Shown: positions 217-64,000 of the stretch, piece by piece
How positions within the stretch are numbered: the first letter of the stretch is position 1
How the letters are laid out: each line of letters starts with the position of its first letter
NCBI RefSeq assembly: GCF_003334335.1
Contig: NZ_QOWQ01000003.1
Reading direction: 5' to 3' (one strand)
From: Escherichia coli
Lineage (GTDB): Bacteria > Pseudomonadota > Gammaproteobacteria > Enterobacterales > Enterobacteriaceae
Length of the DNA stretch: 64,000 nt
Notes under the pieces: model-generated
What the model was told of the DNA's origin: nothing
Database searches by the model: none
What the model saw: the letters and a program-made list of their open reading frames with translations, nothing else
Made by a program: the position numbers and the translations under genes

Positions 217-219
217 TGG

Positions 220-3535: not shown

Positions 3536-3542
3536 CGACTCC

Positions 3543-5302: not shown

Positions 5303-5351
5303 AGAAAAATACCCTTAAAAACCGCAATTTAAATATTGCGGTATTGATTTA

Positions 5352-5371: not shown

Positions 5372-5386
5372 AAAATTTAAAATAAA

Positions 5387-5947: not shown

Positions 5948-5975
5948 AAAAAAAACCGGCGCAATGGCCGGTTTC
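5948..5975 (-). terminator. rho-independent terminator of osmE
   Basis: The minus strand reads accggccattgcgccggt followed by tttttttt, beginning about 30 nt after the osmE stop. Confidence 0.75.
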
Positions 5976-6005
5976 CGTTGTTACTCAAGCTTTCAGACGA
6001 ATTGA

Positions 6006-6344: not shown

Positions 6345-6545
6345 ATTCCGTCCTCTTGTTTATCAGCGTGTTAGATAAGCCTGGAATACATTGGGCGCTT
6401 TTTCAAGCCCGTGAACGAAACGGCTCCGCTTTCAGAGGATTCCTGTATGACGTTTTAACCACCATTCAGCCCGCTGTCGCTTGTCGTTTCAGTAGCAACG
6501 GGTTAGCTTTAAGGAAGTTTTGTCTTTTCTGTCTGGAGGGGTTCA

Positions 6546-7373
6546 ATGACATTGCAACAACAAATAATAAAGGCGCTGGGCGCAAAACCGCAGATTAATG
6601 CTGAAGAGGAAATTCGTCGTAGTGTCGATTTTCTGAAAAGCTACCTGCAAACTTATCCGTTCATTAAATCACTGGTGCTCGGGATCAGCGGCGGTCAGGA
6701 CTCCACGCTTGCCGGAAAGCTGTGCCAGATGGCGATTAATGAGCTGCGCCTGGAAACCGGCAACGAATCACTGCAATTTATTGCCGTACGCCTGCCCTAT
6801 GGTGTTCAGGCCGACGAACAAGATTGCCAGGATGCCATTGCCTTTATTCAACCGGATCGCGTATTAACCGTTAATATCAAGGGCGCGGTATTGGCCAGCG
6901 AACAGGCATTGCGGGAAGCAGGCATTGAACTGAGCGATTTTGTCCGTGGCAATGAAAAAGCGCGTGAGCGGATGAAAGCACAATATAGCATTGCGGGTAT
7001 GACCAGCGGTGTCGTGGTGGGCACCGATCATGCAGCAGAAGCCATTACCGGATTCTTCACTAAATATGGTGACGGCGGTACGGACATTAATCCGCTGTAT
7101 CGTCTCAACAAACGTCAGGGTAAACAGTTACTGGCGGCATTAGCTTGCCCGGAACACCTTTATAAGAAAGCGCCAACGGCCGATCTGGAAGATGATCGCC
7201 CTTCTCTGCCAGATGAAGTGGCACTCGGCGTGACCTATGACAATATCGACGACTATCTGGAAGGGAAAAACGTACCTCAACAGGTCGCCAGAACAATAGA
7301 GAACTGGTATCTGAAAACCGAACATAAACGCCGTCCGCCAATTACCGTTTTCGATGATTTCTGGAAAAAGTAA
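6546..7373 (+). CDS. nadE: NH3-dependent NAD+ synthetase
   Basis: 275-aa ORF with the PP-loop motif [10 protein letters not shown]. Confidence 0.94.
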
Positions 7374-7418
7374 TAATTTGCACATATTGGATTGTGCGAA
7401 AAAGAGTAATTTGTTCAC

Positions 7419-7518
7419 GCCGGATGCGGCGTGAACGCCTTATTCGACCTATAAAACTATGCAAATTCAATACATTGCAGGAGTCGAATAGGCCTGACAG
7501 GCGTAGCACGTCAGACGG
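7419..7518. repeat. BIME/RIP-type element (second copy)
   Basis: Contains gccggatgcggcgtgaacgccttattcgacctat, then tgcaaattcaatacattgcagg, then taggcctgacaggcgtagcacgtcagacgg. Same architecture as 273-371. Confidence 0.8.
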
Positions 7519-7571
7519 TGTAACCTTTGTCATCGACCCGCCTCTTTTTTAATCGCTTCCCGCCTGTTACA

Positions 7572-7587
7572 CTGGATAGATAACCAG
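7572..7587 (+). promoter_or_regulatory. LexA (SOS) box-like palindrome upstream of cho
   Basis: ctggatagataaccag has the form CTGG-N8-CCAG and ends 15 nt before the cho GTG. The canonical box is CTGT-N8-ACAG. cho is known to be SOS-regulated. Confidence 0.6.
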
Positions 7588-7602
7588 CATTCGGAGTCAA
7601 CA

Positions 7603-9103
<1,501 letters not shown>

Positions 9104-9152
9104 TTAGTGGTGATCAGGCTTTTTTTACAACTGTTTGAGAAGAGAAAAGAAA

Positions 9153-9205
9153 ACCGCCGATCCTGTCCACCGCATTACTGCAAGGTAGTGGACAAGACCG
9201 GCGGT
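9153..9205 (-). terminator. long hairpin terminator downstream of spy
   Basis: accgccgatcctgtccac pairs with gtggacaagaccggcggt. On the minus strand a T-rich run (ttttcttttctcttc) follows. Confidence 0.6.
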
Positions 9206-9227
9206 CTTAAGTTTTTTGGCTGAAAGA

Positions 9228-9713
9228 TTATTCAGCAGTTGCAGGCATTTTACCTTTTGCCGCTGGACGTTCTGTCAGACGCTTCTCAAAATTAGCATTA
9301 AATTGCTTTTTCTGTTCCGGCGTCAGGATGTTGTAAATTTTGTTCTGGGTTTCCATGTGCGCCAGCATGTTAGCTTTGCGCTGTTCTTCCATTTTTGCGA
9401 TCTGCGCTTCAGCTTTTACTTTATCGAAGGTATCGCTGGCAATGATGTCATGCATTGCGCGGCGTTCTTCCAGCGGCGGACGTTTCATCTGGTCACGCTG
9501 GCCTTTCATGATTTCGCGGATCTGCTGTTTCTGCGCGTCGGTCAGGTTCAGGTCTTTGAACATCATGTCCTGATGCGGACCGAACTTGCCTTTGTGGTGC
9601 ATCATCGGCTTCGCGTCAGCCGGTGCTGCGGTAGTGGTGTCTGCGGCATGGGCCAGGTTAGCCGCGCCAAGAGCCAGGGTAGAGGCAACAAACAGTGCAG
9701 TTAATTTACGCAT
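9228..9713 (-). CDS. spy: periplasmic ATP-independent chaperone Spy
   Basis: 161-aa ORF with a signal peptide ending AHA and two LTxxQ motifs (LNLTDAQKQQI, LTPEQKKQF). Confidence 0.93.
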   Translation of the reverse strand: MRKLTALFVASTLALGAANLAHAADTTTAAPADAKPMMHHKGKFGPHQDMMFKDLNLTDAQKQQIREIMKGQRDQMKRPPLEERRAMHDIIASDTFDKVKAEAQIAKMEEQRKANMLAHMETQNKIYNILTPEQKKQFNANFEKRLTERPAAKGKMPATAE

Positions 9714-10013
9714 ATTCTATATCCTTCCTTTCAGTTATTTATTACGGCTTTCTTAAGTAGCGTGCCGTGTTGACGAGATTAACTTTACTGACTTTAGCGT
9801 CAATTAATCAGAGCAACGGTAAAACAATGAAAGTGTAAAAAACACTTTTGCGCCAATTATGGAGAAAAAAAGAAAATTTGATGGAGAGTGATGAGAGAAT
9901 ATTACAACACGATGATTTTGCAGAGATTATGAAGAACTATACCGGATGACTGGTGATAAATAAAGCAAATAACCAGGATTAATCTGTATTAATTTATAAG
10001 AAAGCAACTTAAT

Positions 10014-10037
10014 ACCCGCAGAATGATTTCTGCGGGT
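10014..10037 (-). terminator. hairpin just downstream of astE (possible terminator, no strong T-run)
   Basis: 10-bp stem acccgcagaa/ttctgcgggt with a 4-nt loop, 6 nt from the astE stop. Confidence 0.4.
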
Positions 10038-10042
10038 AAGTA

Positions 10043-16106
<6,064 letters not shown>

Positions 16107-16142
16107 TTAATAATAAGTAATGTTTGCGCTGTAAATGTAGAT

Positions 16143-16158
16143 TGCAGGGTTCGTGCCA
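16143..16158 (-). promoter_or_regulatory. sigma54 (-24/-12) promoter of astCADBE
   Basis: The minus strand reads TGGCACgaaccCTGCA (consensus TGGCAC-N5-TTGCA), about 70-90 nt upstream of the astC ATG. The ast operon is known to be nitrogen-regulated. Confidence 0.75.
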
Positions 16159-16515
16159 GCCAGTGATAAAAGTGCATAAACGGCGGAGGCTAACTGGAAA
16201 TCAAGGAGTTATAACCAAACCATATGCATTTAAAGTGCATATAAAGTGAATACGTTTGCGATGTGGGTGAATAAAAAGAATAAAAAACGCAATGTTATGC
16301 AGAAGTAAAATATAATTCTGGAATTGTGATCATTGACGAAATTTACTGGAAATTACTGCGCCATTCTGACGCAGCGCGCACTAAAAGCGGGCATTTTTTG
16401 CGCCATCGTTGACATCATTAACAACCATCGATCAAATCACTTAACAACAGGCGGTAAGCAACGCGAAATTCTGCTACCATCCACGCACTCTTTATCTGAA
16501 TAAATGGCAGCGACT

Positions 16516-17322
16516 ATGAAATTTGTCTCTTTTAATATCAACGGCCTGCGCGCCAGACCTCACCAGCTTGAAGCCATCGTCGAAAAGCACCAACCGGATG
16601 TGATTGGCCTGCAGGAGACAAAAGTTCATGACGATATGTTTCCGCTCGAAGAGGTGGCGAAGCTCGGCTACAACGTGTTTTATCACGGGCAGAAAGGCCA
16701 TTATGGCGTGGCGCTGCTGACCAAAGAGACGCCGATTGCCGTGCGTCGCGGCTTTCCCGGTGACGACGAAGAGGCGCAGCGGCGGATTATTATGGCGGAA
16801 ATCCCCTCACTGCTGGGTAATGTCACCGTGATCAACGGTTACTTCCCGCAGGGTGAAAGCCGCGACCATCCGATAAAATTCCCGGCAAAAGCGCAGTTTT
16901 ATCAGAATCTGCAAAACTACCTGGAAACCGAACTCAAACGTGATAATCCGGTACTGATTATGGGCGATATGAATATCAGCCCTACAGATCTGGATATCGG
17001 CATTGGCGAAGAAAACCGTAAGCGCTGGCTGCGTACCGGTAAATGCTCTTTCCTGCCGGAAGAGCGCGAATGGATGGACAGGCTGATGAGCTGGGGGTTG
17101 GTCGATACCTTCCGCCATGCGAATCCGCAAACAGCAGATCGTTTCTCATGGTTTGATTACCGCTCAAAAGGTTTTGACGATAACCGTGGTCTGCGCATCG
17201 ACCTGCTGCTCGCCAGCCAACCGCTGGCAGAATGTTGCGTAGAAACCGGCATCGACTATGAAATCCGCAGCATGGAAAAACCGTCCGATCACGCCCCCGT
17301 CTGGGCGACCTTCCGCCGCTAA
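16516..17322 (+). CDS. xthA: exonuclease III (AP endonuclease VI)
   Basis: Start taken at [14 protein letters not shown] (268 aa). The ORF track begins 4 codons earlier. Confidence 0.93.
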
Positions 17323-17488
17323 TTTAGCAGCTCTCCTGGCTCAAACTGGGTCAGGAGAATTAACCTTGAGAAAAATCAACAAACTGTCAGTAATGATTTG
17401 TTGCCTGCCGTCCTTTGTTATACCGTCTCTGCGTTTTTAGTTGTCTGACCACTTCTCTATTATCAAGTTTGATATAGGAAACTCCACG

Positions 17489-18199
17489 ATGAACGCTGAG
17501 CGTAAATTTCTTTTTGCCTGTCTTATTTTTGCGCTGGTCATTTACGCTATCCACGCTTTCGGTTTATTCGATCTGCTCACCGATTTACCCCACTTACAGA
17601 CACTCATCCGCCAGAGCGGATTTTTCGGCTATAGCCTCTATATTCTGTTATTCATCATTGCCACCCTCTTGCTGTTACCAGGAAGCATACTGGTGATCGC
17701 GGGAGGAATAGTTTTTGGCCCGCTCTTAGGGACACTACTCTCATTAATTGCCGCCACGCTGGCCTCCTCGTGCTCATTCCTGCTGGCGCGCTGGCTGGGA
17801 CGTGATTTACTGCTGAAATACGTTGGCCATAGCAATACCTTCCAGGCCATTGAAAAAGGCATTGCGCGTAACGGTATTGATTTTCTTATTCTGACCCGCT
17901 TAATCCCGTTGTTTCCTTACAATATTCAAAATTACGCTTACGGATTAACCACAATCGCCTTCTGGCCTTATACCCTTATTTCGGCACTCACGACCCTACC
18001 CGGTATTGTTATTTATACCGTGATGGCAAGCGATCTCGCCAATGAAGGCATTACGCTGCGCTTTATTTTACAACTCTGTCTGGCGGGCCTGGCGCTGTTT
18101 ATTCTCGTCCAGCTCGCAAAACTCTACGCCCGACACAAACATGTGGATCTGTCTGCTTCGCGCCGCAGCCCACTTACTCACCCAAAAAATGAAGGATAG
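17489..18199 (+). CDS. ydjX: DedA / TVP38-TMEM64 (SNARE-associated) family inner-membrane protein
   Basis: ATG at 17489 (MNAERKFLF...). The ORF-track frame begins at a TTG 16 codons upstream. Multi-pass hydrophobic protein. Confidence 0.85.
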   Translation: MNAERKFLFACLIFALVIYAIHAFGLFDLLTDLPHLQTLIRQSGFFGYSLYILLFIIATLLLLPGSILVIAGGIVFGPLLGTLLSLIAATLASSCSFLLARWLGRDLLLKYVGHSNTFQAIEKGIARNGIDFLILTRLIPLFPYNIQNYAYGLTTIAFWPYTLISALTTLPGIVIYTVMASDLANEGITLRFILQLCLAGLALFILVQLAKLYARHKHVDLSASRRSPLTHPKNEG

Positions 18200-18203
18200 A
18201 ACG

Positions 18204-18881
18204 ATGTTGCAACATTATTCAGTGTCATGGAAAAAAGGACTGGCTGCACTCTGTTTACTGGCTGTTGCTGGGCTTAGCGGCTGCGATCAACAAGAGAATG
18301 CGGCGGCAAAAGTGGAATACGACGGACTTTCGAACAGCCAACCGCTGCGTGTCGATGCCAATAACCATACGGTAACCATGCTGGTGCAAATTAATGGTCG
18401 TTTCCTCACCGACGACACTCGTCACGGTATTGTGTTTAAAGATGGCTCCAACGGACATAAATCGCTGTTTATGGGTTATGCGACCCCGAAAGCATTTTAT
18501 GAAGCCCTGAAAGAGGCAGGTGGTACGCCGGGCGAAAACATGACGATGGATAATAAAGAAACGACTCATGTCACAGGCAGCAAACTGGATATTTCGGTCA
18601 ACTGGCAAGGGGCGGCAAAAGCGTATTCCTTCGATGAAGTGATTGTTGACAGTAATGGCAAGAAACTGGACATGCGCTTTGGCGGTAATTTAACGGCAGC
18701 AGAAGAGAAGAAAGCGGGTTGCCTGGTGTGTCTGGATAGCTGCCCGGTCGGCATCGTCAGCAATGCAACATACACTTATGGTGCGGTTGAAAAACGTGGT
18801 GAAGTTAAATTCAAAGGCAATGCCTCAGTTCTCCCGGCGGATAACACGCTGGCAACGGTTACCTTTAAAATCGCCGAATAA
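18204..18881 (+). CDS. ydjY: lipoprotein with a ferredoxin-like Cys cluster
   Basis: Start at MLQHYSVSW with gaagga 7 nt upstream. Lipobox LSGC and a CLVCLDSCP motif. The 54-codon upstream extension overlaps ydjX and is rejected. Confidence 0.85.
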   Translation: MLQHYSVSWKKGLAALCLLAVAGLSGCDQQENAAAKVEYDGLSNSQPLRVDANNHTVTMLVQINGRFLTDDTRHGIVFKDGSNGHKSLFMGYATPKAFYEALKEAGGTPGENMTMDNKETTHVTGSKLDISVNWQGAAKAYSFDEVIVDSNGKKLDMRFGGNLTAAEEKKAGCLVCLDSCPVGIVSNATYTYGAVEKRGEVKFKGNASVLPADNTLATVTFKIAE

Positions 18882-49813: not shown

Positions 49814-50560
49814 TCAGAATTTGTAGGTGATCCCGGTAGAAATCAGGCCAGTCCAGGATTTATCCACCATCGGGCTGTCAGTAACTTCATCAGACAGACG
49901 GGTGTAGCGTGCGGTACCGTAAACACTCCAGTCGCCGAGGAAGTTGTAGCTGGCGCTCAGCTCCAGGTAAGGGCTCCAGCTGTCGTTCGGGTTATAGCCA
50001 CGCAGACCGCTGCGAGCGGACTCTTTGCGCGATACGCCATAATAGTATTCGTTCTGGTTTTCGCTGTTCCACTGCACACCAATACCCGGAGTCACGGTCA
50101 GGCCACCGTTGGTGTAACGATACAACCAGGCCATATCCCAGACGATGCCGTTGCTGTTATCCAGGGTATCGCCAGCCAGGGTGGTACGCAGGTAACCGTA
50201 CTGGGTAAAGTGAGCATAAGACAGACCAGCCATCATGGTGCTCTTACGGTCATCCAGGTGACGCATTTGGTGATCGCCACTGTCTTTCGCTTTGAAGTAA
50301 AGCGGCGACCAGTAAGCGGTAATTGAAAGTTTATCCGTTGCGTCATTCCACAGGTAGTAACCACCACCTAAGCCACGGAACCAGAAGTTATCGCCTTCAT
50401 AGTTGATTACCGGTACTGGGTAAACATCGGTATCGTAATCTTTATATGGGTGTTCAACGACACCTACGCCTGCGCCCAGGGAAAATTTACCTTCAGCGTG
50501 CGCTACGCCTGCAGACGTTGCGATAAGCACTCCAAGTGCCAGAAGTTTGAGTTTGGTCAC
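49814..50560 (-). CDS. mipA: outer-membrane MltA-interacting scaffold protein
   Basis: 248-aa ORF from GTG with a signal peptide ending AHA and a terminal ..GITYKF beta-barrel signature. Confidence 0.9.
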   Translation of the reverse strand: MTKLKLLALGVLIATSAGVAHAEGKFSLGAGVGVVEHPYKDYDTDVYPVPVINYEGDNFWFRGLGGGYYLWNDATDKLSITAYWSPLYFKAKDSGDHQMRHLDDRKSTMMAGLSYAHFTQYGYLRTTLAGDTLDNSNGIVWDMAWLYRYTNGGLTVTPGIGVQWNSENQNEYYYGVSRKESARSGLRGYNPNDSWSPYLELSASYNFLGDWSVYGTARYTRLSDEVTDSPMVDKSWTGLISTGITYKF

Positions 50561-50876
50561 AATTAATCATTCCTTAAACAAATGTTTAGCGGGCGACAAA
50601 GTTTACCCGTCAATACATCGAAACCCAACCTTTTTACGTTTTCATTTTTTAAAGTAACTGTTTAATTTTCCTGACGCGGATGACACCGCGCTTACAGCCA
50701 AATGAATTTAGCGTTACTGGCGAGCCTGGTCTTTACATTAATTATGCAAAATTTATGGATGAGTTGTTGATATGCCATTGAAATTAAGAAAGCCGTGCAG
50801 GCAAGTTTTCCATTTGCCATCTACGCTTAATTTTGAAGGTGTATCACCGGGCACGTTGTTCTCATCGTCGATAAAA

Positions 50877-50892
50877 TGGCATGAGAGTTGCT
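50877..50892 (+). promoter_or_regulatory. sigma54 (-24/-12) promoter upstream of yeaG
   Basis: TGGCATgagagTTGCT (consensus TGGCAC-N5-TTGCW), about 104 nt upstream of the yeaG ATG. Confidence 0.65.
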
Positions 50893-50995
50893 GTGTTTTA
50901 GCAAGAGACGTCGTTCAGTTTACCTCTTCCGGGAGCCTCTACTATTCATATGAACGGCTCTTAACCTGTGCTAAAAAACGAAAGGACGGCATACC

Positions 50996-52930
50996 ATGAA
51001 TATATTCGATCACTATCGCCAGCGATATGAAGCTGCCAAGGACGAAGAGTTCACACTGCAGGAGTTTCTTACCACTTGTCGGCAAGATCGCAGTGCTTAT
51101 GCCAACGCGGCTGAGCGGCTATTGATGGCTATCGGTGAGCCTGTCATGGTCGATACAGCCCAGGAACCCAGACTTTCTCGACTCTTTTCTAACCGGGTCA
51201 TTGCACGTTATCCGGCGTTTGAAGAGTTTTACGGCATGGAAGACGCGATTGAACAGATTGTCTCTTATCTGAAACACGCGGCTCAGGGGCTGGAAGAGAA
51301 GAAACAAATCCTGTATCTGCTGGGGCCTGTGGGTGGGGGTAAATCATCGCTTGCTGAGCGACTGAAATCATTAATGCAGCTCGTACCGATTTATGTATTG
51401 AGCGCGAACGGTGAGCGTAGCCCGGTCAACGATCATCCGTTCTGTCTTTTCAATCCGCAGGAAGATGCGCAGATTCTGGAAAAAGAGTATGGCATTCCTC
51501 GCCGTTATCTCGGCACCATCATGTCGCCGTGGGCGGCAAAACGCCTGCATGAATTTGGTGGCGATATCACTAAGTTCCGGGTAGTGAAGGTCTGGCCGTC
51601 AATTCTGCAACAAATTGCTATCGCCAAAACGGAACCCGGCGATGAGAACAACCAGGACATCTCCGCGCTGGTTGGGAAAGTCGATATTCGTAAACTCGAA
51701 CACTACGCGCAGAATGACCCGGACGCCTACGGCTATTCCGGTGCGCTGTGCCGCGCCAATCAGGGGATCATGGAATTCGTTGAGATGTTTAAAGCACCGA
51801 TTAAAGTGCTGCATCCCTTGTTAACCGCCACTCAGGAAGGTAACTACAACGGGACGGAAGGTATCTCCGCCCTGCCGTTCAACGGGATTATTCTCGCACA
51901 CTCGAACGAGTCCGAATGGGTCACTTTCCGTAATAACAAAAACAACGAAGCCTTCCTCGATCGTGTTTACATCGTGAAGGTGCCGTATTGCTTGCGCATT
52001 TCCGAAGAGATCAAAATCTACGAGAAATTGCTTAATCACAGTGAATTGACTCACGCCCCATGCGCCCCTGGCACGCTCGAAACACTGTCACGTTTTTCCA
52101 TTCTTTCGCGCCTGAAAGAGCCAGAAAACTCCAGCATTTATTCAAAGATGCGGGTTTATGATGGCGAAAGTCTGAAAGACACCGATCCCAAAGCCAAGTC
52201 GTATCAGGAATATCGTGACTACGCCGGTGTCGATGAAGGGATGAACGGTCTGTCGACGCGTTTTGCGTTTAAGATCCTCTCCCGCGTGTTCAACTTCGAT
52301 CATGTAGAAGTGGCAGCAAACCCGGTCCATCTGTTCTACGTCCTGGAACAGCAGATTGAGCGCGAGCAGTTCCCACAAGAGCAGGCAGAACGCTATCTGG
52401 AGTTCCTGAAAGGTTATCTGATCCCGAAATATGCCGAGTTTATCGGCAAAGAGATCCAGACGGCCTACCTTGAATCCTATTCCGAATATGGGCAAAACAT
52501 TTTCGACCGTTATGTTACCTACGCGGATTTCTGGATTCAGGATCAGGAGTATCGCGATCCGGATACCGGGCAGCTGTTTGACCGCGAGTCTCTTAACGCC
52601 GAGCTGGAGAAAATCGAGAAACCGGCGGGGATCAGTAATCCAAAAGATTTCCGCAACGAGATTGTTAACTTCGTACTGCGCGCCAGAGCGAATAACAGCG
52701 GACGCAATCCGAACTGGACCAGCTATGAAAAACTGCGCACGGTCATCGAGAAGAAAATGTTCTCCAATACCGAGGAGCTGTTGCCGGTTATCTCGTTTAA
52801 CGCCAAAACGTCAACCGACGAGCAGAAGAAACACGACGACTTTGTCGACCGTATGATGGAAAAAGGCTACACCCGTAAACAGGTGCGTTTACTGTGCGAA
52901 TGGTATTTGCGCGTACGTAAATCGTCTTAA
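50996..52930 (+). CDS. yeaG: PrkA-family serine protein kinase / AAA-type ATPase
   Basis: 644-aa ORF with a Walker A motif, LLGPVGGGKSSLAERL. Confidence 0.92.
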   Translation: MNIFDHYRQRYEAAKDEEFTLQEFLTTCRQDRSAYANAAERLLMAIGEPVMVDTAQEPRLSRLFSNRVIARYPAFEEFYGMEDAIEQIVSYLKHAAQGLEEKKQILYLLGPVGGGKSSLAERLKSLMQLVPIYVLSANGERSPVNDHPFCLFNPQEDAQILEKEYGIPRRYLGTIMSPWAAKRLHEFGGDITKFRVVKVWPSILQQIAIAKTEPGDENNQDISALVGKVDIRKLEHYAQNDPDAYGYSGALCRANQGIMEFVEMFKAPIKVLHPLLTATQEGNYNGTEGISALPFNGIILAHSNESEWVTFRNNKNNEAFLDRVYIVKVPYCLRISEEIKIYEKLLNHSELTHAPCAPGTLETLSRFSILSRLKEPENSSIYSKMRVYDGESLKDTDPKAKSYQEYRDYAGVDEGMNGLSTRFAFKILSRVFNFDHVEVAANPVHLFYVLEQQIEREQFPQEQAERYLEFLKGYLIPKYAEFIGKEIQTAYLESYSEYGQNIFDRYVTYADFWIQDQEYRDPDTGQLFDRESLNAELEKIEKPAGISNPKDFRNEIVNFVLRARANNSGRNPNWTSYEKLRTVIEKKMFSNTEELLPVISFNAKTSTDEQKKHDDFVDRMMEKGYTRKQVRLLCEWYLRVRKSS

Positions 52931-52937
52931 CAACCCT

Positions 52938-52962
52938 GGCCCGGTACACATGTTACCGGGCC
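52938..52962 (+). other. intra-operon stem-loop between yeaG and yeaH
   Basis: 9-bp stem ggcccggta/taccgggcc with a 7-nt loop and no T-run, 8 nt after the yeaG stop. Confidence 0.5.
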
Positions 52963-53030
52963 TACAACGACAGCGAACCGTGGGCCTGAGAAGCGGCAAC
53001 ACAGGCGTAGCATACAGTTGGCAAATGTAG

Positions 53031-54326
<1,296 letters not shown>

Positions 54327-54330
54327 AACT

Positions 54331-54364
54331 ATCAGCCAGGTCATTATCGCCTGGCTGATTTTTA
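54331..54364 (+). terminator. rho-independent terminator of yeaGH
   Basis: atcagccagg-tcattatcg-cctggctgat followed by tttt. Confidence 0.8.
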
Positions 54365-54472
54365 GCTTACTGTAAATTATCTCATTTATTACATACATTA
54401 GCTTACAATCGCTTTAAATATGACAGCATAACCTTTACATAATTTAGTTCCAGAAAACAATCATTCGGAAAA

Positions 54473-55948
54473 ATGATTCAGTCAACACGTATTTCCATGG
54501 GGTTATTCTTTAAATATTTTTTATCGTTAACGAAAATTGATCCTGGTCAAAACTATATATCTCTGCCATCAATAAAATCCAGCACTCACATTGCTCTCCT
54601 TTTTATGGTTTCTATGGGTACACAAAAATTAAAAGCTCAAAGCTTTTTTATTTTCAGTTTATTGCTGACGTTAATTTTATTTTGCATTACTACCTTATAT
54701 AACGAAAACACAAATGTAAAACTCATCCCACAGATGAATTACCTGATGGTTGTTGTGGCTTTGTTTTTCCTTAACGCCGTCATTTTTCTTTTCATGTTAA
54801 TGAAATATTTCACTAACAAACAAATTTTACCAACACTCATTTTAAGCCTTGCATTTTTAAGTGGCCTTATCTATTTAGTTGAAACCATTGTAATTATCCA
54901 TAAACCAATTAACGGCAGTACACTGATCCAGACAAAGTCGAATGATGTTTCTATTTTCTATATTTTCCGCCAACTCAGTTTTATTTGTTTAACCTCGCTG
55001 GCGCTCTTTTGTTATGGAAAAGACAACATCCTTGACAACAATAAGAAAAAAACGGGAATCCTGTTGCTGGCGCTGATCCCTTTTTTAGTTTTTCCCCTTC
55101 TGGCACACAATCTGAGCAGTTATAACGCTGACTATTCTTTGTATGTCGTCGATTACTGTCCGGACAACCATACTGCGACCTGGGGAATCAACTATACAAA
55201 AATATTGGTTTGTCTGTGGGCATTTTTACTGTTCTTTATTATCATGCGCACACGATTAGCCAGCGAACTATGGCCGTTAATAGCATTATTATGTCTGGCA
55301 TCGCTATGCTGCAACTTACTTCTACTGACTCTGGATGAGTATAATTATACTATCTGGTATATCAGTCGCGGGATTGAAGTTTCCAGTAAACTGTTTGTTG
55401 TGTCTTTTCTGATTTATAACATTTTTCAGGAGCTGCAACTCTCCAGCAAACTGGCAGTTCATGATGTGCTGACCAATATTTATAATCGGCGCTACTTTTT
55501 CAACAGCGTAGAGTCATTATTGTCGCGACCTGTTGTTAAGGACTTCTGTGTCATGCTGGTTGATATTAATCAGTTCAAACGCATCAATGCCCAATGGGGA
55601 CATCGTGTGGGTGATAAAGTGCTGGTTTCAATTGTCGATATTATCCAGCAAAGCATCCGCCCCGATGATATTTTAGCGCGACTGGAGGGTGAGGTGTTTG
55701 GCTTGCTATTTACCGAACTCAATAGTGCCCAGGCAAAAATCATTGCGGAACGTATGCGTAAAAATGTCGAACTCCTGACCGGCTTTAGTAACAGATATGA
55801 TGTTCCTGAACAAATGACCATCAGTATTGGCACGGTTTTTTCAACGGGTGACACGCGTAATATCTCGCTTGTCATGACGGAAGCAGATAAAGCCTTACGC
55901 GAAGCGAAAAGCGAGGGGGGCAACAAAGTGATTATTCATCATATTTAA
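54473..55948 (+). CDS. yeaI: membrane-anchored degenerate GGDEF protein (c-di-GMP binding effector type)
   Basis: 491-aa ORF with an N-terminal multi-TM region. The GGDEF position reads EGEVF, with an RxxD site (RPDD) 5 residues upstream. Also named cdgI. Confidence 0.9.
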   Translation: MIQSTRISMGLFFKYFLSLTKIDPGQNYISLPSIKSSTHIALLFMVSMGTQKLKAQSFFIFSLLLTLILFCITTLYNENTNVKLIPQMNYLMVVVALFFLNAVIFLFMLMKYFTNKQILPTLILSLAFLSGLIYLVETIVIIHKPINGSTLIQTKSNDVSIFYIFRQLSFICLTSLALFCYGKDNILDNNKKKTGILLLALIPFLVFPLLAHNLSSYNADYSLYVVDYCPDNHTATWGINYTKILVCLWAFLLFFIIMRTRLASELWPLIALLCLASLCCNLLLLTLDEYNYTIWYISRGIEVSSKLFVVSFLIYNIFQELQLSSKLAVHDVLTNIYNRRYFFNSVESLLSRPVVKDFCVMLVDINQFKRINAQWGHRVGDKVLVSIVDIIQQSIRPDDILARLEGEVFGLLFTELNSAQAKIIAERMRKNVELLTGFSNRYDVPEQMTISIGTVFSTGDTRNISLVMTEADKALREAKSEGGNKVIIHHI

Positions 55949-56128
55949 GTGCAAAAATATTCAGAGCCATGCTTTTTGCGTGGCTTTTGCATACAATTTA
56001 TTACTATTACCCCTAAATTTCCCCTCCCCAGCGGCGCAGAGATGAGTATAATTAGCGCCCCTGTGCCAGGCCGCAATCGAACTTTATCTGGTTTTCTCGT
56101 TTCACTAACCGAAGGAGTGCCATTTATC

Positions 56129-57619
56129 ATGAAATTGCACCATAGAATGCTCCGGCATTTTATCGCCGCAAGTGTCATTGTGCTGACATCTTCCTTCCTT
56201 ATTTTTGAACTTGTCGCCAGCGACAGAGCAATGAGTGCCTATCTGCGCTATATCGTGCAGAAAGCAGACTCCTCCTTTCTTTATGATAAGTATCAGAATC
56301 AGAGTATTGCCGCGCATGTGATGCGCGCTCTCGCTGCTGAGCAGTCGGAAGTGTCGCCAGAACAGCGGCGCGCCATCTGCGAGGCTTTTGAGTCTGCCAA
56401 TAACACCCATGGCTTAAACCTGACTGCCCATAAATACCCGGGCTTACGCGGCACACTACAAACCGCATCCACTGACTGCGACACAATTGTGGAAGCTGCA
56501 GCACTATTACCCGCTTTTGATCAGGCAGTGGAAGGCAACCGCCACCAGGATGATTACGGTTCAGGTCTTGGGATGGCCGAAGAGAAATTTCACTATTATC
56601 TCGATCTCAATGACCGCTATGTCTATTTTTATGAGCCGGTTAATGTTGAATACTTTGCGATGAATAACTGGTCCTTCCTGCAGTCAGGAAGTATTGGCAT
56701 CGATCGCAAAGATATTGAAAAGGTATTTACCGGGCGTACCGTATTGTCGAGCATTTACCAGGATCAGCGTACTAAACAGAACGTGATGAGTTTGCTGACG
56801 CCGGTATATGTCGCAGGGCAGCTAAAAGGGATTGTGCTGCTGGATATTAACAAAAACAATCTGCGGAATATCTTTTATACTCATGACCGCCCTCTCCTCT
56901 GGCGTTTTCTCAATGTCACGCTAACCGATACCGATTCGGGGCGCGACATTATCATCAACCAGAGCGAAGATAATCTGTTCCAGTATGTCAGTTACGTCCA
57001 TGACTTACCGGGCGGCATTCGTGTCTCGTTATCCATTGATATTCTTTACTTTATCACGTCTTCGTGGAAAAGCGTTCTGTTCTGGATTTTGACGGCGTTA
57101 ATTTTGCTGAATATGGTGCGGATGCACTTCCGTTTATACCAAAATGTGTCGCGAGAAAATATTTGTGATGCGATGACTGGACTGTATAATCGCAAAATTT
57201 TAACCCCTGAACTGGAGCAGCGGTTGCAGAAACTGGTGCAATCCGGTTCTTCGGTGATGTTTATTGCTATTGACATGGACAAGTTAAAGCAAATAAATGA
57301 CACCCTCGGTCATCAGGAGGGGGATTTAGCGATTACGTTATTAGCTCAGGCGATTAAACAGTCGATTCGTAAAAGTGATTATGCCATCCGACTCGGTGGC
57401 GATGAATTCTGCATCATTCTTGTCGATTCGACGCCGCAAATTGCAGCACAACTGCCTGAACGTATCGAAAAACGTCTGCAACATATCGCGCCGCAGAAAG
57501 AGATCGGCTTCTCTTCCGGTATTTACGCGATGAAAGAAAACGATACGTTACATGATGCGTATAAAGCTTCCGATGAGCGTTTATATGTCAATAAGCAGAA
57601 CAAAAACAGCCGTTCATGA
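56129..57619 (+). CDS. yeaJ: membrane-bound diguanylate cyclase
   Basis: Start at MKLHHRMLRHF (496 aa) downstream of gaaggag. Intact GGDEF (RLGGDEFCIIL) with the RKSD I-site. Also named dgcJ. Confidence 0.9.
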   Translation: MKLHHRMLRHFIAASVIVLTSSFLIFELVASDRAMSAYLRYIVQKADSSFLYDKYQNQSIAAHVMRALAAEQSEVSPEQRRAICEAFESANNTHGLNLTAHKYPGLRGTLQTASTDCDTIVEAAALLPAFDQAVEGNRHQDDYGSGLGMAEEKFHYYLDLNDRYVYFYEPVNVEYFAMNNWSFLQSGSIGIDRKDIEKVFTGRTVLSSIYQDQRTKQNVMSLLTPVYVAGQLKGIVLLDINKNNLRNIFYTHDRPLLWRFLNVTLTDTDSGRDIIINQSEDNLFQYVSYVHDLPGGIRVSLSIDILYFITSSWKSVLFWILTALILLNMVRMHFRLYQNVSRENICDAMTGLYNRKILTPELEQRLQKLVQSGSSVMFIAIDMDKLKQINDTLGHQEGDLAITLLAQAIKQSIRKSDYAIRLGGDEFCIILVDSTPQIAAQLPERIEKRLQHIAPQKEIGFSSGIYAMKENDTLHDAYKASDERLYVNKQNKNSRS

Positions 57620-57661
57620 TAACCTTCTGTGGTTGTTTGCTTGTAATCTCAGGAGCGTGAA

Positions 57662-58165
57662 ATGACTGAAATGGCTAAAGGAAGCGTGACGCATCAGCGG
57701 TTAATCGCTTTATTATCACAAGAAGGTGCTGACTTCCGCGTCGTTACCCATGAAGCGGTAGGTAAATGTGAAGCGGTGTCAGAAATTCGTGGCACCGCTC
57801 TAGGCCAGGGTGCTAAGGCACTGGTATGTAAAGTCAAAGGCAATGGCGTAAATCAACATGTTCTGGCGATCCTCGCAGCCGATCAACAGGCCGATCTGAG
57901 CCAACTCGCCAGCCATATAGGCGGATTACGCGCTTCGTTGGCCAGCCCGGCGGAAGTCGATGAACTCACAGGCTGTGTCTTCGGCGCGATCCCCCCTTTC
58001 AGCTTCCATCCAAAACTCAAACTGGTTGCCGACCCTCTACTCTTCGAACGATTTGATGAAATCGCCTTCAATGCAGGCATGCTGGATAAATCCGTTATTT
58101 TGAAAACCGCGGATTATTTGCGCATTGCGCAACCAGAACTGGTCAATTTCCGCCGCACTGCGTAA
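57662..58165 (+). CDS. yeaK: YbaK/ProX-like aminoacyl-tRNA trans-editing deacylase
   Basis: 167-aa ORF recognised as YeaK. Confidence 0.86.
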   Translation: MTEMAKGSVTHQRLIALLSQEGADFRVVTHEAVGKCEAVSEIRGTALGQGAKALVCKVKGNGVNQHVLAILAADQQADLSQLASHIGGLRASLASPAEVDELTGCVFGAIPPFSFHPKLKLVADPLLFERFDEIAFNAGMLDKSVILKTADYLRIAQPELVNFRRTA

Positions 58166-58270
58166 CTAGCCGGTCCGTTCGATAAGAAGAACGGACAAAA
58201 CCAGTACAACAGCAATGGCAAAAAACGATGACGTGATAATCAGTGTCTCGACAAACATTTGATCGTTCAT
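58166..58270 (-). CDS. yoaI: 34-aa single-TM small membrane protein
   Basis: Hand translation of the minus strand gives [34 protein letters not shown]. It is below the ORF-track cutoff. Its TAG stop abuts the yeaK TAA. Confidence 0.8.
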
Positions 58271-58320
58271 AGCATGCCCCCGGGAGATAGCTGTTTTCAC
58301 GTTATTGTTAGCGTGCACAA

Positions 58321-58338
58321 ATGGCAGTTTGATGACAG
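58321..58338 (-). promoter_or_regulatory. Pho box (PhoB binding site) at the -35 position of the yoaI promoter
   Basis: The minus strand reads CTGTCATCAAACTGCCAT (consensus CTGTCATAWAWCTGTCAY), 51-68 nt upstream of the yoaI ATG. A -10-like taacaat lies downstream of it. Confidence 0.6.
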
Positions 58339-58439
58339 TTCGCCTGATTTTTTATGCAAAAAACGTAAAGATTTTCTACTTCCTTCCTGCAGCAAGCGTA
58401 AAGTAAGCAGGCTTATTATTTTTTGGCAAGGAAACCACG

Positions 58440-58886
58440 ATGTTTGATGTCACTTTGCTGATCCTGCTCGGGTTAGCTGCGCTGGGCTTTATCAGTCATA
58501 ACACCACTGTCGCCGTTTCAATTCTGGTGTTAATCATTGTCCGCGTCACACCGTTAAGCACCTTTTTTCCGTGGATTGAAAAACAGGGGCTAAGTATCGG
58601 GATAATCATTCTGACGATTGGCGTTATGGCCCCCATCGCCAGCGGGACGCTACCGCCCTCAACCTTGATTCACTCGTTTCTGAACTGGAAATCACTGGTG
58701 GCGATTGCAGTAGGCGTGATTGTCTCCTGGCTGGGTGGGCGCGGCGTGACGTTAATGGGCAGCCAGCCGCAACTGGTCGCCGGGCTGCTGGTAGGCACTG
58801 TTTTAGGCGTAGCGCTGTTTCGCGGCGTACCGGTTGGGCCGCTTATTGCCGCGGGTCTGGTTTCGCTGATTGTGGGGAAACAGTAG
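58440..58886 (+). CDS. yeaL: DUF441-family inner-membrane protein
   Basis: 148-aa hydrophobic ORF. Confidence 0.86.
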
Positions 58887-59664
58887 TTAATCTCGCAATA
58901 TATCGGCCTGGCGTTTGCCCCAGGCCTTTCTTAAACATAGTAATAAAGGCCGTTGTTGAATCATACCCCAGCGTATGAGCAACTTTCTGTACAGTATCGC
59001 CTTTCACTAATCCCTGAAGCGCCATAATCAGCTGTAACTGCTGACGCCACTGGCGAAAACTCAACCCCGTCTCTTTTACTATCAGTCGGGCAAGATTGCG
59101 TTCACTCATCGCAAAAAAGCCAGCCCATTGCCCCAATGCCCCCCACTCGACAGGCCCTTTCGCCATCATCTCCACCATCGTGCGGATTTTAGGATGAGAA
59201 GAAACGGGCAGGTGCAGCTGTTGTTGTGGCTGCTGAGGGAGTTCATCAAACAGGACCTGAATTAATCTGCGGGTCATTGGCTCAGCACGCTGAGTCGTCG
59301 TCCTGTTTGCCAGGGTTAAAATTAATTCCCGGCATAAGGGCGATATTTTCAATGTGCAACATGTTGTCGGCATTGTCACTGCGCTGGGTTCGATAAACAG
59401 AAAACAGAGTTCAGCATTAGCTGTTACTTGATTGCTATGTTCCACCCCGCCCGGTATCCAAACCGCATATTGTGGCGGCACCATCCACAAAGCATTTTCC
59501 ACCGTACAGGTAATTGCACCATGTAGCGCCAGTATCAGCTGTCCTTTGCGGTGCTGATGTACAGGACTGGTTAACTCATCCGTTCCGGCGTGAATACAAA
59601 ATGCGACCGCGGCTTCATGGTGTCGGTCGGGTTCATAGCCATTGAGATTCAACCTGTGCATCAT
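58843..59664 (-). CDS. yeaM: AraC-family regulator (NimR)
   Basis: 273-aa ORF with an N-terminal cupin-like region and C-terminal AraC HTH. Divergent from yeaN. Its 3' end overlaps yeaL by 44 nt. Confidence 0.87.
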
Positions 59665-59760
59665 TTTGTCCGAACTTAGCGATAATTTGTCATTTTAGCT
59701 TGATTCAACATAACAATAAAAACGGTAAGGTACAGCCTCGTTTGTAACAATGAGAAGCAT

Positions 59761-60942
59761 ATGACCTGTTCAACTTCATTAAGCGGCAAAAACAGGATTG
59801 TCCTTATCGCTGGCATTCTGATGATTGCCACAACATTACGCGTCACCTTTACCGGCGCAGCACCGTTACTGGATACGATTCGTTCCGCTTACTCGCTGAC
59901 GACAGCGCAAACCGGCTTATTGACCACCCTGCCATTATTGGCCTTTGCGCTAATCTCACCTTTGGCTGCCCCGGTAGCGCGACGTTTTGGTATGGAACGT
60001 AGCCTGTTTGCCGCGTTACTTTTGATCTGTGCTGGTATCGCAATTCGCTCTCTCCCTTCGCCTTACTTATTATTTGGCGGTACAGCGGTCATTGGCGGTG
60101 GGATTGCATTAGGCAATGTCTTACTGCCAGGATTAATTAAACGCGATTTCCCTCATTCCGTCGCCAGACTTACCGGCGCATATTCCCTGACAATGGGAGC
60201 TGCAGCGGCACTGGGATCGGCTATGGTCGTGCCGCTGGCTTTGAACGGTTTTGGCTGGCAAGGCGCGTTGCTCATGCTGATGTGTTTTCCTCTGCTGGCT
60301 CTTTTTTTATGGCTGCCACAGTGGCGAAGTCAACAACATGCAAATTTGAGTACCTCGCGCGCCTTACATACTCGGGGTATCTGGCGTTCGCCGCTTGCCT
60401 GGCAGGTCACATTGTTTCTTGGGATCAACTCACTGGTCTATTACGTGATTATTGGCTGGCTTCCGGCGATCCTCATCAGTCACGGCTATAGCGAAGCACA
60501 GGCGGGTTCACTGCATGGTTTGCTGCAACTAGCCACAGCAGCACCCGGTTTGCTGATCCCACTTTTCTTACATCATGTGAAAGATCAGCGTGGTATTGCA
60601 GCGTTCGTTGCCTTGATGTGCGCAGTGGGCGCGGTTGGGCTCTGCTTTATGCCAGCGCACGCGATCACCTGGACTCTGCTTTTCGGTTTTGGTTCCGGCG
60701 CAACAATGATACTGGGGTTGACGTTCATTGGTCTGCGGGCTAGTTCTGCGCATCAGGCGGCGGCACTCTCGGGGATGGCACAATCCGTCGGGTATTTGTT
60801 GGCAGCCTGTGGGCCGCCGCTGATGGGTAAAATACACGATGCTAACGGTAACTGGTCTGTACCACTTATGGGTGTTGCCATACTTTCACTACTGATGGCG
60901 ATTTTCGGACTTTGCGCCGGGAGAGACAAAGAAATTCGCTAA
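59761..60942 (+). CDS. yeaN: MFS efflux transporter (NimT, cyanate-permease-like family)
   Basis: 393-aa 12-TM-type ORF. Confidence 0.87.
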   Translation: MTCSTSLSGKNRIVLIAGILMIATTLRVTFTGAAPLLDTIRSAYSLTTAQTGLLTTLPLLAFALISPLAAPVARRFGMERSLFAALLLICAGIAIRSLPSPYLLFGGTAVIGGGIALGNVLLPGLIKRDFPHSVARLTGAYSLTMGAAAALGSAMVVPLALNGFGWQGALLMLMCFPLLALFLWLPQWRSQQHANLSTSRALHTRGIWRSPLAWQVTLFLGINSLVYYVIIGWLPAILISHGYSEAQAGSLHGLLQLATAAPGLLIPLFLHHVKDQRGIAAFVALMCAVGAVGLCFMPAHAITWTLLFGFGSGATMILGLTFIGLRASSAHQAAALSGMAQSVGYLLAACGPPLMGKIHDANGNWSVPLMGVAILSLLMAIFGLCAGRDKEIR

Positions 60943-60996
60943 TATCCGGTGCTATAGTGACGTAACAAATCATGCGTGAAAGGGAGAACAAACACG

Positions 60997-61344
60997 ATGA
61001 ATATTCAGTGCAAACGCGTTTATGATCCGGCTGAACAGAGCGATGGTTATCGCATACTGGTCGACCGCCTCTGGCCGCGCGGTATCAAAAAAACCGATTT
61101 AGCCCTTGATGAGTGGGATAAAGAAATCACGCCGTCAACGGAACTGCGCAAAGCCTTTCACGGCGAAGTCGTCGATTATGCAACCTTTCGCGAGCAATAT
61201 CTTGCAGAACTGGCGCAACACGAGCAAGAAGGAAAGCGGCTGGCGGACATCGCCAAAAAACAGCCGCTGACCCTGCTCTACTCAGCAAAAAACACCACGC
61301 AGAACCATGCGCTGGTGCTGGCCGACTGGCTACGTAGCTTGTGA
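60997..61344 (+). CDS. yeaO: DUF488-family protein
   Basis: Start at MNIQCKRVYDPAEQSDGYRILVDRLWPRG (115 aa). Confidence 0.85.
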   Translation: MNIQCKRVYDPAEQSDGYRILVDRLWPRGIKKTDLALDEWDKEITPSTELRKAFHGEVVDYATFREQYLAELAQHEQEGKRLADIAKKQPLTLLYSAKNTTQNHALVLADWLRSL

Positions 61345-61365
61345 TTTTAGTACAGCATCCGGCGG

Positions 61366-61620
61366 TTATTTTTCACCAGCCGGATGGTCACGCCGCCACA
61401 ATGCCCATTCATCAATCGTTTCACCGCCCGGTAATTTGCAATTGTTGCTGACCCCTTGCGCTGTCTGCACTGGAATGAGCGTCCCGCCCTTCTGCTGGCA
61501 ATAGACCGACGCCGGATTTGCCATACCAATCTGCGGCGGTTTAGGTGCTTCTGGCTGAGAAGGGGTTGAACAACCAGCCAGGACCAGCAAGCAAGGCAGA
61601 ACAAAACTGATAATTTTCAT
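61366..61620 (-). CDS. yoaF: DUF333-family lipoprotein
   Basis: 84-aa ORF with lipobox LAGC. Confidence 0.85.
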   Translation of the reverse strand: MKIISFVLPCLLVLAGCSTPSQPEAPKPPQIGMANPASVYCQQKGGTLIPVQTAQGVSNNCKLPGGETIDEWALWRRDHPAGEK

Positions 61621-61802
61621 TTATTGATCTCACATATTTATCCAAGATTAGAGTATCGCGGTATCGTTTTGTTTTGCAGCACTATTTTTATTACATTCAC
61701 TCAAAACATATTACGTCTTGTTTCATCTTTGTTGATGATGTTTTATCATGCCTGCAAAGATTAAATAATCAGCATTTACCCGCCGTATCCTGGAGTTGTT
61801 CC

Positions 61803-62828
61803 GTGTCAGATCAGATTATCGCCCGCGTCTCGCAATCCCTTGCCAAAGAACAGTCACTGGAAAGTCTGGTCCGACAGCTTCTGGAGATGCTGGAAATGGT
61901 CACTGATATGGAATCAACCTACCTGACCAAAGTGGATGTCGAAGCGCGCCTGCAGCATATTATGTTTGCCCGTAACAGCCAGAAAATGTACATCCCGGAG
62001 AATTTTACCGTCTCGTGGGATTACTCGTTATGCAAACGCGCCATTGATGAAAACTGCTTTTTCAGCGATGAAGTCCCCGACCGTTGGGGTGACTGTATTG
62101 CGGCACGCAATCTTGGCATCACCACATTTCTGAGCACGCCAATTCACTTACCGGATGGATCATTCTATGGCACGCTTTGCGCCGCCAGCAGTGAGAAGCG
62201 CCAGTGGAGTGAACGCGCGGAACAGGTTTTACAGTTATTCGCCGGACTGATTGCACAATATATTCAAAAAGAGGCACTGGTTGAACAGCTGCGCGAAGCC
62301 AATGCTGCGCTGATTGCGCAATCGTATACCGACTCGTTAACCGGGCTACCGAATCGGCGGGCGATTTTTGAAAATCTGACGACACTGTTTTCCCTCGCCC
62401 GGCATCTTAACCATAAGATAATGATCGCGTTTATCGATCTGGATAACTTCAAATTAATCAATGATCGTTTTGGTCATAATAGTGGCGATCTGTTTCTCAT
62501 TCAGGTTGGCGAGCGCCTTAATACGCTCCAGCAAAATGGCGAAGTTATTGGTCGTCTCGGCGGTGATGAGTTTTTAGTTGTTTCACTAAACAACGAGAAT
62601 GCGGATATTTCGTCGCTGCGAGAACGCATTCAGCAGCAAATACGTGGAGAATATCACTTAGGTGATGTTGATTTGTATTATCCCGGTGCCAGTCTTGGCA
62701 TAGTAGAAGTCGATCCTGAAACAACCGATGCAGACAGTGCCCTGCATGCTGCCGATATTGCGATGTATCAGGAGAAAAAACACAAACAGAAAACACCTTT
62801 TGTCGCGCATCCAGCGCTACATTCCTGA
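61803..62828 (+). CDS. yeaP: cytoplasmic GAF-GGDEF diguanylate cyclase
   Basis: GTG start at 61803 (MSDQIIARVSQ, 341 aa) with tggag 7 nt upstream. Intact RLGGDEFLVV. Also named dgcP. Confidence 0.88.
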   Translation: MSDQIIARVSQSLAKEQSLESLVRQLLEMLEMVTDMESTYLTKVDVEARLQHIMFARNSQKMYIPENFTVSWDYSLCKRAIDENCFFSDEVPDRWGDCIAARNLGITTFLSTPIHLPDGSFYGTLCAASSEKRQWSERAEQVLQLFAGLIAQYIQKEALVEQLREANAALIAQSYTDSLTGLPNRRAIFENLTTLFSLARHLNHKIMIAFIDLDNFKLINDRFGHNSGDLFLIQVGERLNTLQQNGEVIGRLGGDEFLVVSLNNENADISSLRERIQQQIRGEYHLGDVDLYYPGASLGIVEVDPETTDADSALHAADIAMYQEKKHKQKTPFVAHPALHS

Positions 62829-62860
62829 GGCGTATTCACATCCTTTTGATTGGTGATAAC

Positions 62861-62959
62861 ATGCGAATCGGTATTATTTTTCCGGTTGTAATCTTCATTA
62901 CAGCGGTCGTATTTTTAGCATGGTTTTTTATTGGCGGCTATGCTGCCCCGGGAGCATAA
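62861..62959 (+). CDS. yoaK: 32-aa single-TM small protein
   Basis: Hand translation gives MRIGIIFPVVIFITAVVFLAWFFIGGYAAPGA*. Below the ORF-track cutoff. Confidence 0.75.
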   Translation: MRIGIIFPVVIFITAVVFLAWFFIGGYAAPGA

Positions 62960-62961
62960 AG

Positions 62962-63036
62962 ATGAAAAAAACAACGATTATTATGATGGGTGTGGCGATT
63001 ATTGTCGTACTCGGCACTGAGCTGGGATGGTGGTAA
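62962..63036 (+). CDS. yoaJ: 24-aa single-TM small protein
   Basis: Hand translation gives MKKTTIIMMGVAIIVVLGTELGWW*. Starts 2 nt after the yoaK stop. Confidence 0.75.
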   Translation: MKKTTIIMMGVAIIVVLGTELGWW

Positions 63037-63055
63037 CGTCACCTCTAAAAAATAG

Positions 63056-63082
63056 CAAAGGCTGCCTGTGTGCAGCCTTTGT
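63056..63082. terminator. hairpin terminator shared by convergent yoaJ and yeaQ
   Basis: caaaggctgc-ctgtgt-gcagcctttg. Confidence 0.7.
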
Positions 63083-63094
63083 GCAATTTAAGCG

Positions 63095-63343
63095 TTAACT
63101 TTTAATCTTCCTGTAGATAAATAGCACGACAATCGCACCAATAACGGCAACCACGAAGCTGCCAAAATTGAAGCCATCGACTTTACCAAAGCCAAACAGC
63201 GTGCTGATCCATCCGCCGACTACGGCACCGACTATCCCCAGCAGGATAGTCATAAAGAATCCACCTCCATCTTTACCTGGCATGATCCACTTCGCCAGAA
63301 TACCGGCAATAAGCCCAAAAATAATCCATGACAGAATGCCCAT
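63095..63343 (-). CDS. yeaQ: GlsB/YeaQ/YmgE-family small membrane stress protein
   Basis: 82-aa Gly-rich hydrophobic ORF. Confidence 0.87.
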   Translation of the reverse strand: MGILSWIIFGLIAGILAKWIMPGKDGGGFFMTILLGIVGAVVGGWISTLFGFGKVDGFNFGSFVVAVIGAIVVLFIYRKIKS

Positions 63344-63490
63344 TGTTTCCTCACTTATCTGTTTTGCATTAGCGGGTTAGTCGCTGATAAAAAGCATAGC
63401 ACAACATCGGGAGGGCAAGATTTGTGACGAGCATCACGGAGGTTTTTTTTGCGATGGCGCAGAAATTGCGCCATCAACGATCAGTGATAA

Positions 63491-63673
63491 TTACCAACCA
63501 CAAACATCATGTTCGTTTTCCGTGTCATAAGAACGTACGGTATTCACCAGATCTTTTATCACTTCAGCCGCCACTTCTGGCACCAGCAAAGTCATCGGCG
63601 TCTCTGTTTCATAATCGACAGAAACGCCATTGCTGTTATTGGTGACGGTCACGGTATACGTTGCTTTGCCCAT
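63491..63673 (-). CDS. yoaG: DUF1869-type small protein
   Basis: 60-aa ORF, starting 3 nt after the yeaR stop. Confidence 0.82.
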   Translation of the reverse strand: MGKATYTVTVTNNSNGVSVDYETETPMTLLVPEVAAEVIKDLVNTVRSYDTENEHDVCGW

Positions 63674-63676
63674 GAT

Positions 63677-63924
63677 TCATTTCCCGTTATGAATGACTTT
63701 CCGTTGTTGCGCACCTTCCATCAGGACTTCAGGAGCCACGAAGAAGTCAATGTTGAAATAAGTATCGTCAGTCATGGCTTCAATGTTGTGCCACTTTTCT
63801 GGAGGGAACACCGCAAACTGCCCCGCTTCGATAAGGATCACCTGATCAGGCTCTGCACTGTGTTCATCAGCGTAGCCGAGATATTTGACCGCCCCATGCA
63901 TAACGGAAAGGCGTGGGTAAACCC
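63677..63924 (-). pseudogene. yeaR: yeaR (DUF1971 / TehB-C-terminal-like) 3' portion, interrupted by IS186
   Basis: The frame reads ...GVYPRLSVMHGAVKYLG...VIHNGK*. Upstream of 63925 the YeaR sequence is replaced by IS186 sequence, and an in-frame TAA appears at the junction. Confidence 0.8.
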
Positions 63925-64000
63925 CATAAGCGCTAACTTAAGGGTTGAACCATCTGAAGAATGCGACGCCTCGGTGCCTCGTTAAGACGATGCCTCGCGT
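63925..64000 (-). mobile_element. IS186 (IS4 family) terminal inverted repeat and adjoining 3' end; element continues beyond the window
   Basis: cataagcgctaacttaagggttg, followed by aaccatctgaagaatgcgacgcctcggtgcctcgttaagacgatgcctcgcgt, matches the IS186 end as I recall it. The flanking target gggtaaaccc is G-run/C-run bounded. Confidence 0.85.
63933..64000 (-). CDS. insL: IS186 transposase, C-terminal fragment (5' end beyond the window)
   Basis: The minus-strand frame reads ARHRLNEAPRRRILQMVQPLS*, with TAG at 63933-63935 inside the terminal repeat. Confidence 0.8.
   Translation of the reverse strand, partial: ARHRLNEAPRRRILQMVQPLS

Follow-up and report, generated by a model that had tools for sequence, protein, structure and literature searches.

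An IS186 insertion at a recurrent hot spot splits yeaR in an Escherichia coli genome closely related to K-12

Introduction

IS186 (IS4 family; labeled "IS421 family" by PGAP) is present in Escherichia coli K-12 strain MG1655 as three copies, IS186A, IS186B, and IS186C, none of which lies in yeaR. A target consensus of 5'-GGGG(N6/N7)CCCC-3' has been derived from 59 de novo insertions of this element, and palindromic sites of this form are taken by IS186 in either orientation (Lee et al. 2016). The hot spots described for it, at the lon promoter, fimA, and menC, share the GGGG(N6/7)CCCC palindromic target, the use of either orientation, and independent recurrence.

Insertions into yeaR have also been described. 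This gene is followed by yoaG in the yeaR-yoaG operon. The operon promoter is located upstream of yeaR; NarL activates it from a single 7-2-7 site, and it is also under NsrR control. The MG1655 derivative PFM2, an unselected founder, carries an additional IS186 in yeaR, and many antibiotic-evolved MG1655 lines carry IS186 in the same gene (Hoeksema et al. 2018, PMC6307192). The Baym megaplate experiment is reported to have yielded an IS insertion in yeaR, with the element unnamed (Durrant et al., bioRxiv 10.1101/527788), and yeaR is a parallel mutational target in the mouse gut (Barroso-Batista et al. 2015, PMC4674774). Since yeaR::IS186 has been published in both PFM2 and evolved lines, an insertion of this kind is already known.

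Here, we describe a 64,000-nucleotide stretch of E. coli DNA from contig NZ_QOWQ01000003.1 (the whole stretch is referred to as the window) that ends within an IS186 element in yeaR. The locus agrees with PFM2 and the evolved MG1655 lines in gene, element, and map position (~1.87-1.88 Mb), and its junction is base-identical to that of the K-12 derivatives CV601 and PG2018xxx. It differs from PFM2 and the evolved lines in its background, which is not K-12. Compared with the lon promoter, fimA, and menC hot spots, which it likewise resembles in target, orientation, and recurrence, the yeaR site has a mismatch in the G flank (GTGG) and is located within a gene that is dispensable and of unknown function, for which no phenotype has been described.

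Results

Background of the window and its close relatives

Positions 1..63925 of the window are collinear with positions 1815913..1879837 of MG1655, with 20 scattered SNPs and no gaps. Given this gapless collinearity, the IS186 element is the sole structural change relative to MG1655 across the window. We rejected an assignment of the window to K-12 itself on the basis of the 20 SNPs that separate it from MG1655 over 64 kb; by its sequence, the source appears to be a close phylogroup-A-like relative of K-12. The insertion is therefore the same type of event as that in PFM2 and the evolved MG1655 lines but in another phylogroup-A-like background, where it may have been inherited or have arisen independently.

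No exact match to the whole window was found among the complete E. coli genomes compared. The best matches to 25-kb portions of the window were a few SNPs apart from it or contained an extra IS1. The genome closest to the window over positions 1-25000, that of PK6, has an intact yeaR, and the presence or absence of IS186 at yeaR thus differs among close relatives. PK6 also has an IS1 between dgcP and yoaF (L005 6104..6801), and SEV1 and SEV4 carry an extra segment of ~776 bp within the stretch matching positions 39001-64000 of the window.

A scan of the window against Rfam returned two plus-strand matches to the ES036 (CssrF) small RNA, at 307..349 and 7453..7495 (55.5 and 42.9 bits, respectively). 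These 43-nt elements lie downstream of katE and near chbB/osmE and are possibly repeat- or terminator-like. Nothing was found by the Rfam scan at the yeaR/IS186 locus.

The junction between yeaR and IS186

At position 63925, the plus strand changes to CATAAGCGCTAACTTAAGGGTTGAACC, and the last 76 bases of the window (63925..64000) match the end of MG1655 IS186A, the copy near dnaJ that was used for comparison, at every base (76/76 identities). This is the end of the element downstream of insL, on the minus strand. It begins with the 23-bp terminal inverted repeat CATAAGCGCTAACTTAAGGGTTG at 63925..63947, identical to the inverted repeat of MG1655 IS186A, and the element continues past the end of the window, with the remaining ~1263 nt lying beyond base 64000. 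An earlier note on this DNA, made from the letters alone, had placed an IS186 end against a truncated yeaR at 63925, and this proved exact to the base. The same note described yeaR as intact in MG1655 with no IS186 there, which the MG1655 sequence and annotation bear out.

Minus-strand translation across the junction (window 63677..64000) reads ...FNP*VSAY up to the junction and continues in yeaR as GVYPRLSVMHGAVKY...VIHNGK*. The in-frame stop that the earlier note had seen at the junction is present as a TAA at 63938..63940 (minus strand), 13-15 nt inside the IS and within the inverted repeat. This codon lies in the yeaR frame and is predicted to block translation entering the yeaR remnant from the IS.

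One element of that first reading was wrong. The peptide RHRLNEAPRRRILQMVQPLS*, with the terminal residues ...QMVQPLS*, had been taken as the C terminus of the transposase; it is not, because insL stops 171 nt before the end of the IS, with InsL ending in ...RSAGSEKKN* in the full copy of CV601gfp. The peptide instead forms part of an unannotated 62-amino-acid open reading frame in the tail of IS186 with a GTG start, which is in a different frame from insL, overlaps the insL stop, and ends in ...RRRILQMVQPLS*. In the K-12 strain CV601gfp, this frame occupies L001 3534..3722 on the minus strand and extends into the inverted repeat; its last 22 codons correspond to window positions 63933..63998.

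The target site and its duplication

The uninterrupted site in MG1655 is GCGTGGGTAAACCCCCGGG. When the target is restored, it reads GTGG-GTAAAC-CCCC, with a single mismatch to the IS186 consensus GGGG(N6)CCCC that falls in the G flank. The suggestion that the flank fits the preference of IS186 for targets bounded by a G run and a C run thus agrees with the published consensus to within one base. The 10-bp target-site duplication, GGGTAAACCC, is centered on the 6-bp core of this target and is present as a single copy within the window, at 63915..63924 (unstranded). A second copy of GGGTAAACCC flanks the opposite end of the IS in L001, L002, L006, and L007. A direct-repeat search gives 11 nt, as the inverted repeat also begins with C, and the formal length of the duplication is thus 10-11 bp.

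A good match to the motif is not enough to determine occupancy. A perfect IS186 consensus GGGG(N6)CCCC target, GGGGCGCCGACCCC, is found elsewhere in the window, at 46680..46693 in the msrB-gapA intergenic region, and an IS186 at this site upstream of gapA was absent from all 5426 complete E. coli genomes. The perfect site is therefore empty, while the imperfect site in yeaR is occupied in 8.3% of the same genomes (see below). The simplest reading would be that insertions upstream of gapA are purged and the loss of yeaR is tolerated.

Complete structure in genomes with the same junction

We inspected three genomes with the same junction, those of K-12 CV601gfp (L001), the porcine enterotoxigenic strain UMNK88 (L002), and SCPM-O-B-7615 (L007), the last of which is the best single-piece match to window positions 39001-64000. 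The order in all three is yoaG, the 3' part of yeaR, IS186, the 5' part of yeaR, and leuE. The 5' piece of yeaR is a 123-nt pseudogene fragment comprising the first 41 codons, and its predicted product in L001 consists of 41 YeaR residues followed by 13 IS-encoded residues. In L001 and L007, the element measures 1339 bp from inverted repeat to inverted repeat, shows 100% identity to IS186A, and carries the gene for the DDE transposase InsL (WP_001300563.1); insL and yeaR share a strand (L001). The element in yeaR of UMNK88 is 1343 bp long (L002 3526..4868), and its transposase is annotated as frameshifted. This copy is decayed and differs from the K-12-type element found at that position.

The earlier note had predicted that a full IS186, a duplication of 10-11 bp, and the first third of yeaR would follow beyond the junction, and all of these were found in each of the three genomes (3/3). 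We infer that the genome from which the window derives is probably organized in the same way beyond base 64000.

Occupancy of the yeaR site across E. coli genomes

To place the insertion at the level of the species, we searched 5426 complete E. coli genomes. The junction in the orientation of the window, scored where a 120-nt junction-spanning query was covered, was found in 197 of the 5426. The opposite orientation, represented by a synthetic query in which the other IS186 end was joined to the same yeaR flank, was found in 255 of 5426. The site was intact (empty) in 4963 of 5426 genomes. Taking both orientations together, the yeaR site is occupied in 8.3% of complete genomes. For the intact-site query, the surplus of places over records (5872 - 5420 = 452) equals the sum of the two junction counts (197 + 255). 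Neither half of the site has thus been lost from any occupied genome, in agreement with simple insertions.

All three classes are represented among K-12 derivatives: the site is empty in MG1655, occupied in the orientation of the window in CV601 and in the mouse-gut PG2018 isolates, and occupied in the opposite orientation in ET12567 and a "Dam/Dcm" strain. In ET12567, an identical IS186 occupies this site in reverse, flanked by the same duplication. Within one laboratory lineage, then, IS186 has entered the site on more than one occasion. These data indicate that the yeaR site is a recurrent natural hot spot for IS186 that is used in both orientations. The description of the insertion as the only strain-specific structural change in the window was accordingly right in part: it is the sole structural difference from MG1655, but it is not specific to this strain, with 197 + 255 of 5426 genomes occupied.

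Predicted consequences for yeaR and yoaG

The 3' remnant of yeaR in the window (63677..63925, minus strand) comprises codons 38-119 and the stop, and has neither a start codon nor a promoter of its own. Over positions 63677..63924 it shows zero differences from MG1655 (comparison over window 60391..63924). The remnant matches the Pfam family DUF1971 at profile positions 24-80 of 80, and the N-terminal part of the domain is therefore missing. In genomes that share the junction, RefSeq annotates this stretch as a pseudogene of yeaR, "missing N-terminus". An intact yeaR frame of 119 codons is absent from the window, as the IS interrupts it at codon 38, and the yeaR promoter lies outside the window. 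The longest open reading frame in the remnant, taken from the list of open reading frames, encodes 74 amino acids from Met47 (63677..63901, minus strand), and no Shine-Dalgarno-like sequence was seen upstream of it on reading the sequence. Neither fragment can yield full-length YeaR, and yeaR, split at codons 38-41, is thus inactivated.

The second gene of the operon, yoaG (63491..63673, minus strand), is intact. It encodes a 60-amino-acid protein that matches DUF1869 over profile positions 2-59 of 59 (E = 4.7e-33), and the yeaR-yoaG gene order next to yeaQ is conserved. The start of yoaG lies 3 nt past the yeaR stop, so any translational coupling between the two genes would be lost. With the insertion, yoaG is ~1.35 kb further from the operon promoter.

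A consensus scan of IS186 and both junctions found no outward sigma-70-like promoter. On the insL strand, a scan of the 171-nt IS tail found no canonical intrinsic terminator, and a terminator scan of the IS and its junctions gave two weak hairpins resembling terminators, a number that shuffled sequences also reach. The RNA of the IS186 tail and junction (L001 3490..3705, minus strand) is predicted to fold into stable hairpins (minimum free energy, -72.5 kcal/mol; z = -3.0 relative to shuffles), and no U tract follows the hairpins in this fold. An untranslated 171-nt tail followed by an untranslated yeaR remnant would favor Rho-dependent polarity, and polarity of this kind acting on yoaG is plausible. 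From the arrangement of these features, expression of yoaG is likely to be substantially reduced or uncoupled from control by nitrate/NO.

Discussion

We very probably observe an ordinary simple insertion of IS186, correctly identified and of a kind that has already been described. In the proposed sequence of events, an IS186 copy would have transposed into yeaR at codons 38-41, at the near-consensus target GtGG(GTAAAC)CCCC, duplicating the 10 bp GGGTAAACCC. The element would end up with insL co-directional with yeaR, and only the junction downstream of insL falls within the window. The event destroys YeaR, leaving a 5' piece of 41 YeaR residues plus 13 IS residues and a 3' piece without a start codon, and separates yoaG from the NarL-activated yeaR-yoaG promoter by 1.34 kb of IS. 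Such an insertion would be tolerated, yeaR being dispensable.

The window ends 76 nt into the IS, and the second inverted repeat, the second copy of the duplication, and the 5' part of yeaR all lie outside it. The IS186 end could for this reason mark a rearrangement, such as recombination between IS186 copies, a deletion, or an inversion, with the 5' part of yeaR no longer adjacent, and both recombination and deletions mediated by IS186 have been documented in E. coli. Against this, all three of the inspected genomes with the same junction are simple insertions, the number of split sites equals the number of junctions so that none of the 452 occupied genomes lacks either half, and collinearity with MG1655 is perfect over the remainder of the window. 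We consider a rearrangement highly improbable, and a simple insertion of IS186 into yeaR at a recurrent hot spot is with little doubt the best explanation of the junction. A separate matter is whether yoaG is in fact silenced by such an insertion, as transcription from the yeaR promoter, the insL promoter, or both might read through the end of the IS and still drive yoaG. The stretch that separates the insL stop from the IS end, with no canonical intrinsic terminator and with hairpins that are not followed by a U tract, would permit this, and the two orientations are similarly frequent (197 versus 255), giving no sign that orientation matters, although these counts are confounded by clonal descent. 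The scan, however, returned no outward promoter, and on general grounds the in-frame TAA and the lack of a start codon or Shine-Dalgarno sequence favor Rho-dependent polarity, with coupling lost. Continued expression of yoaG by read-through is possible but the less likely outcome.

The frequency of the insertion could also reflect positive selection for the loss of yeaR-yoaG, in the gut or under fluoroquinolones, beyond target preference and neutrality. yeaR was hit in parallel in wild-type mouse gut populations (PMC4674774), IS186 in yeaR was correlated with exposure to enrofloxacin (PMC6307192), and the perfect site at 46680 is empty in 5426/5426 genomes. The last of these is equally explained by purifying selection at an essential promoter, and IS186 hot spots such as fimA and menC are hit repeatedly in mutation-accumulation lines, where selection is absent (Lee et al. 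2016). Because the unselected founder PFM2 already has the insertion in yeaR, positive selection is not required, and we regard it as an unlikely cause of the high occupancy. A stronger form of this proposal, in which the insertion is a selected off-switch for yeaR-yoaG in the gut or under fluoroquinolones that also couples expression of insL to nitrosative stress, is very unlikely; if it were true, insL in the orientation seen in the window would have been placed downstream of a nitrate/NO-induced promoter.

The insertion is a common polymorphism that inactivates yeaR, useful as a strain marker and mattering little beyond bookkeeping. The occupancy of 8.3% over 5426 complete genomes, in both orientations, provides a population-scale figure for the yeaR hot spot, and "parallel" yeaR mutations in evolution experiments may reflect the target preference of IS186 and not selection.
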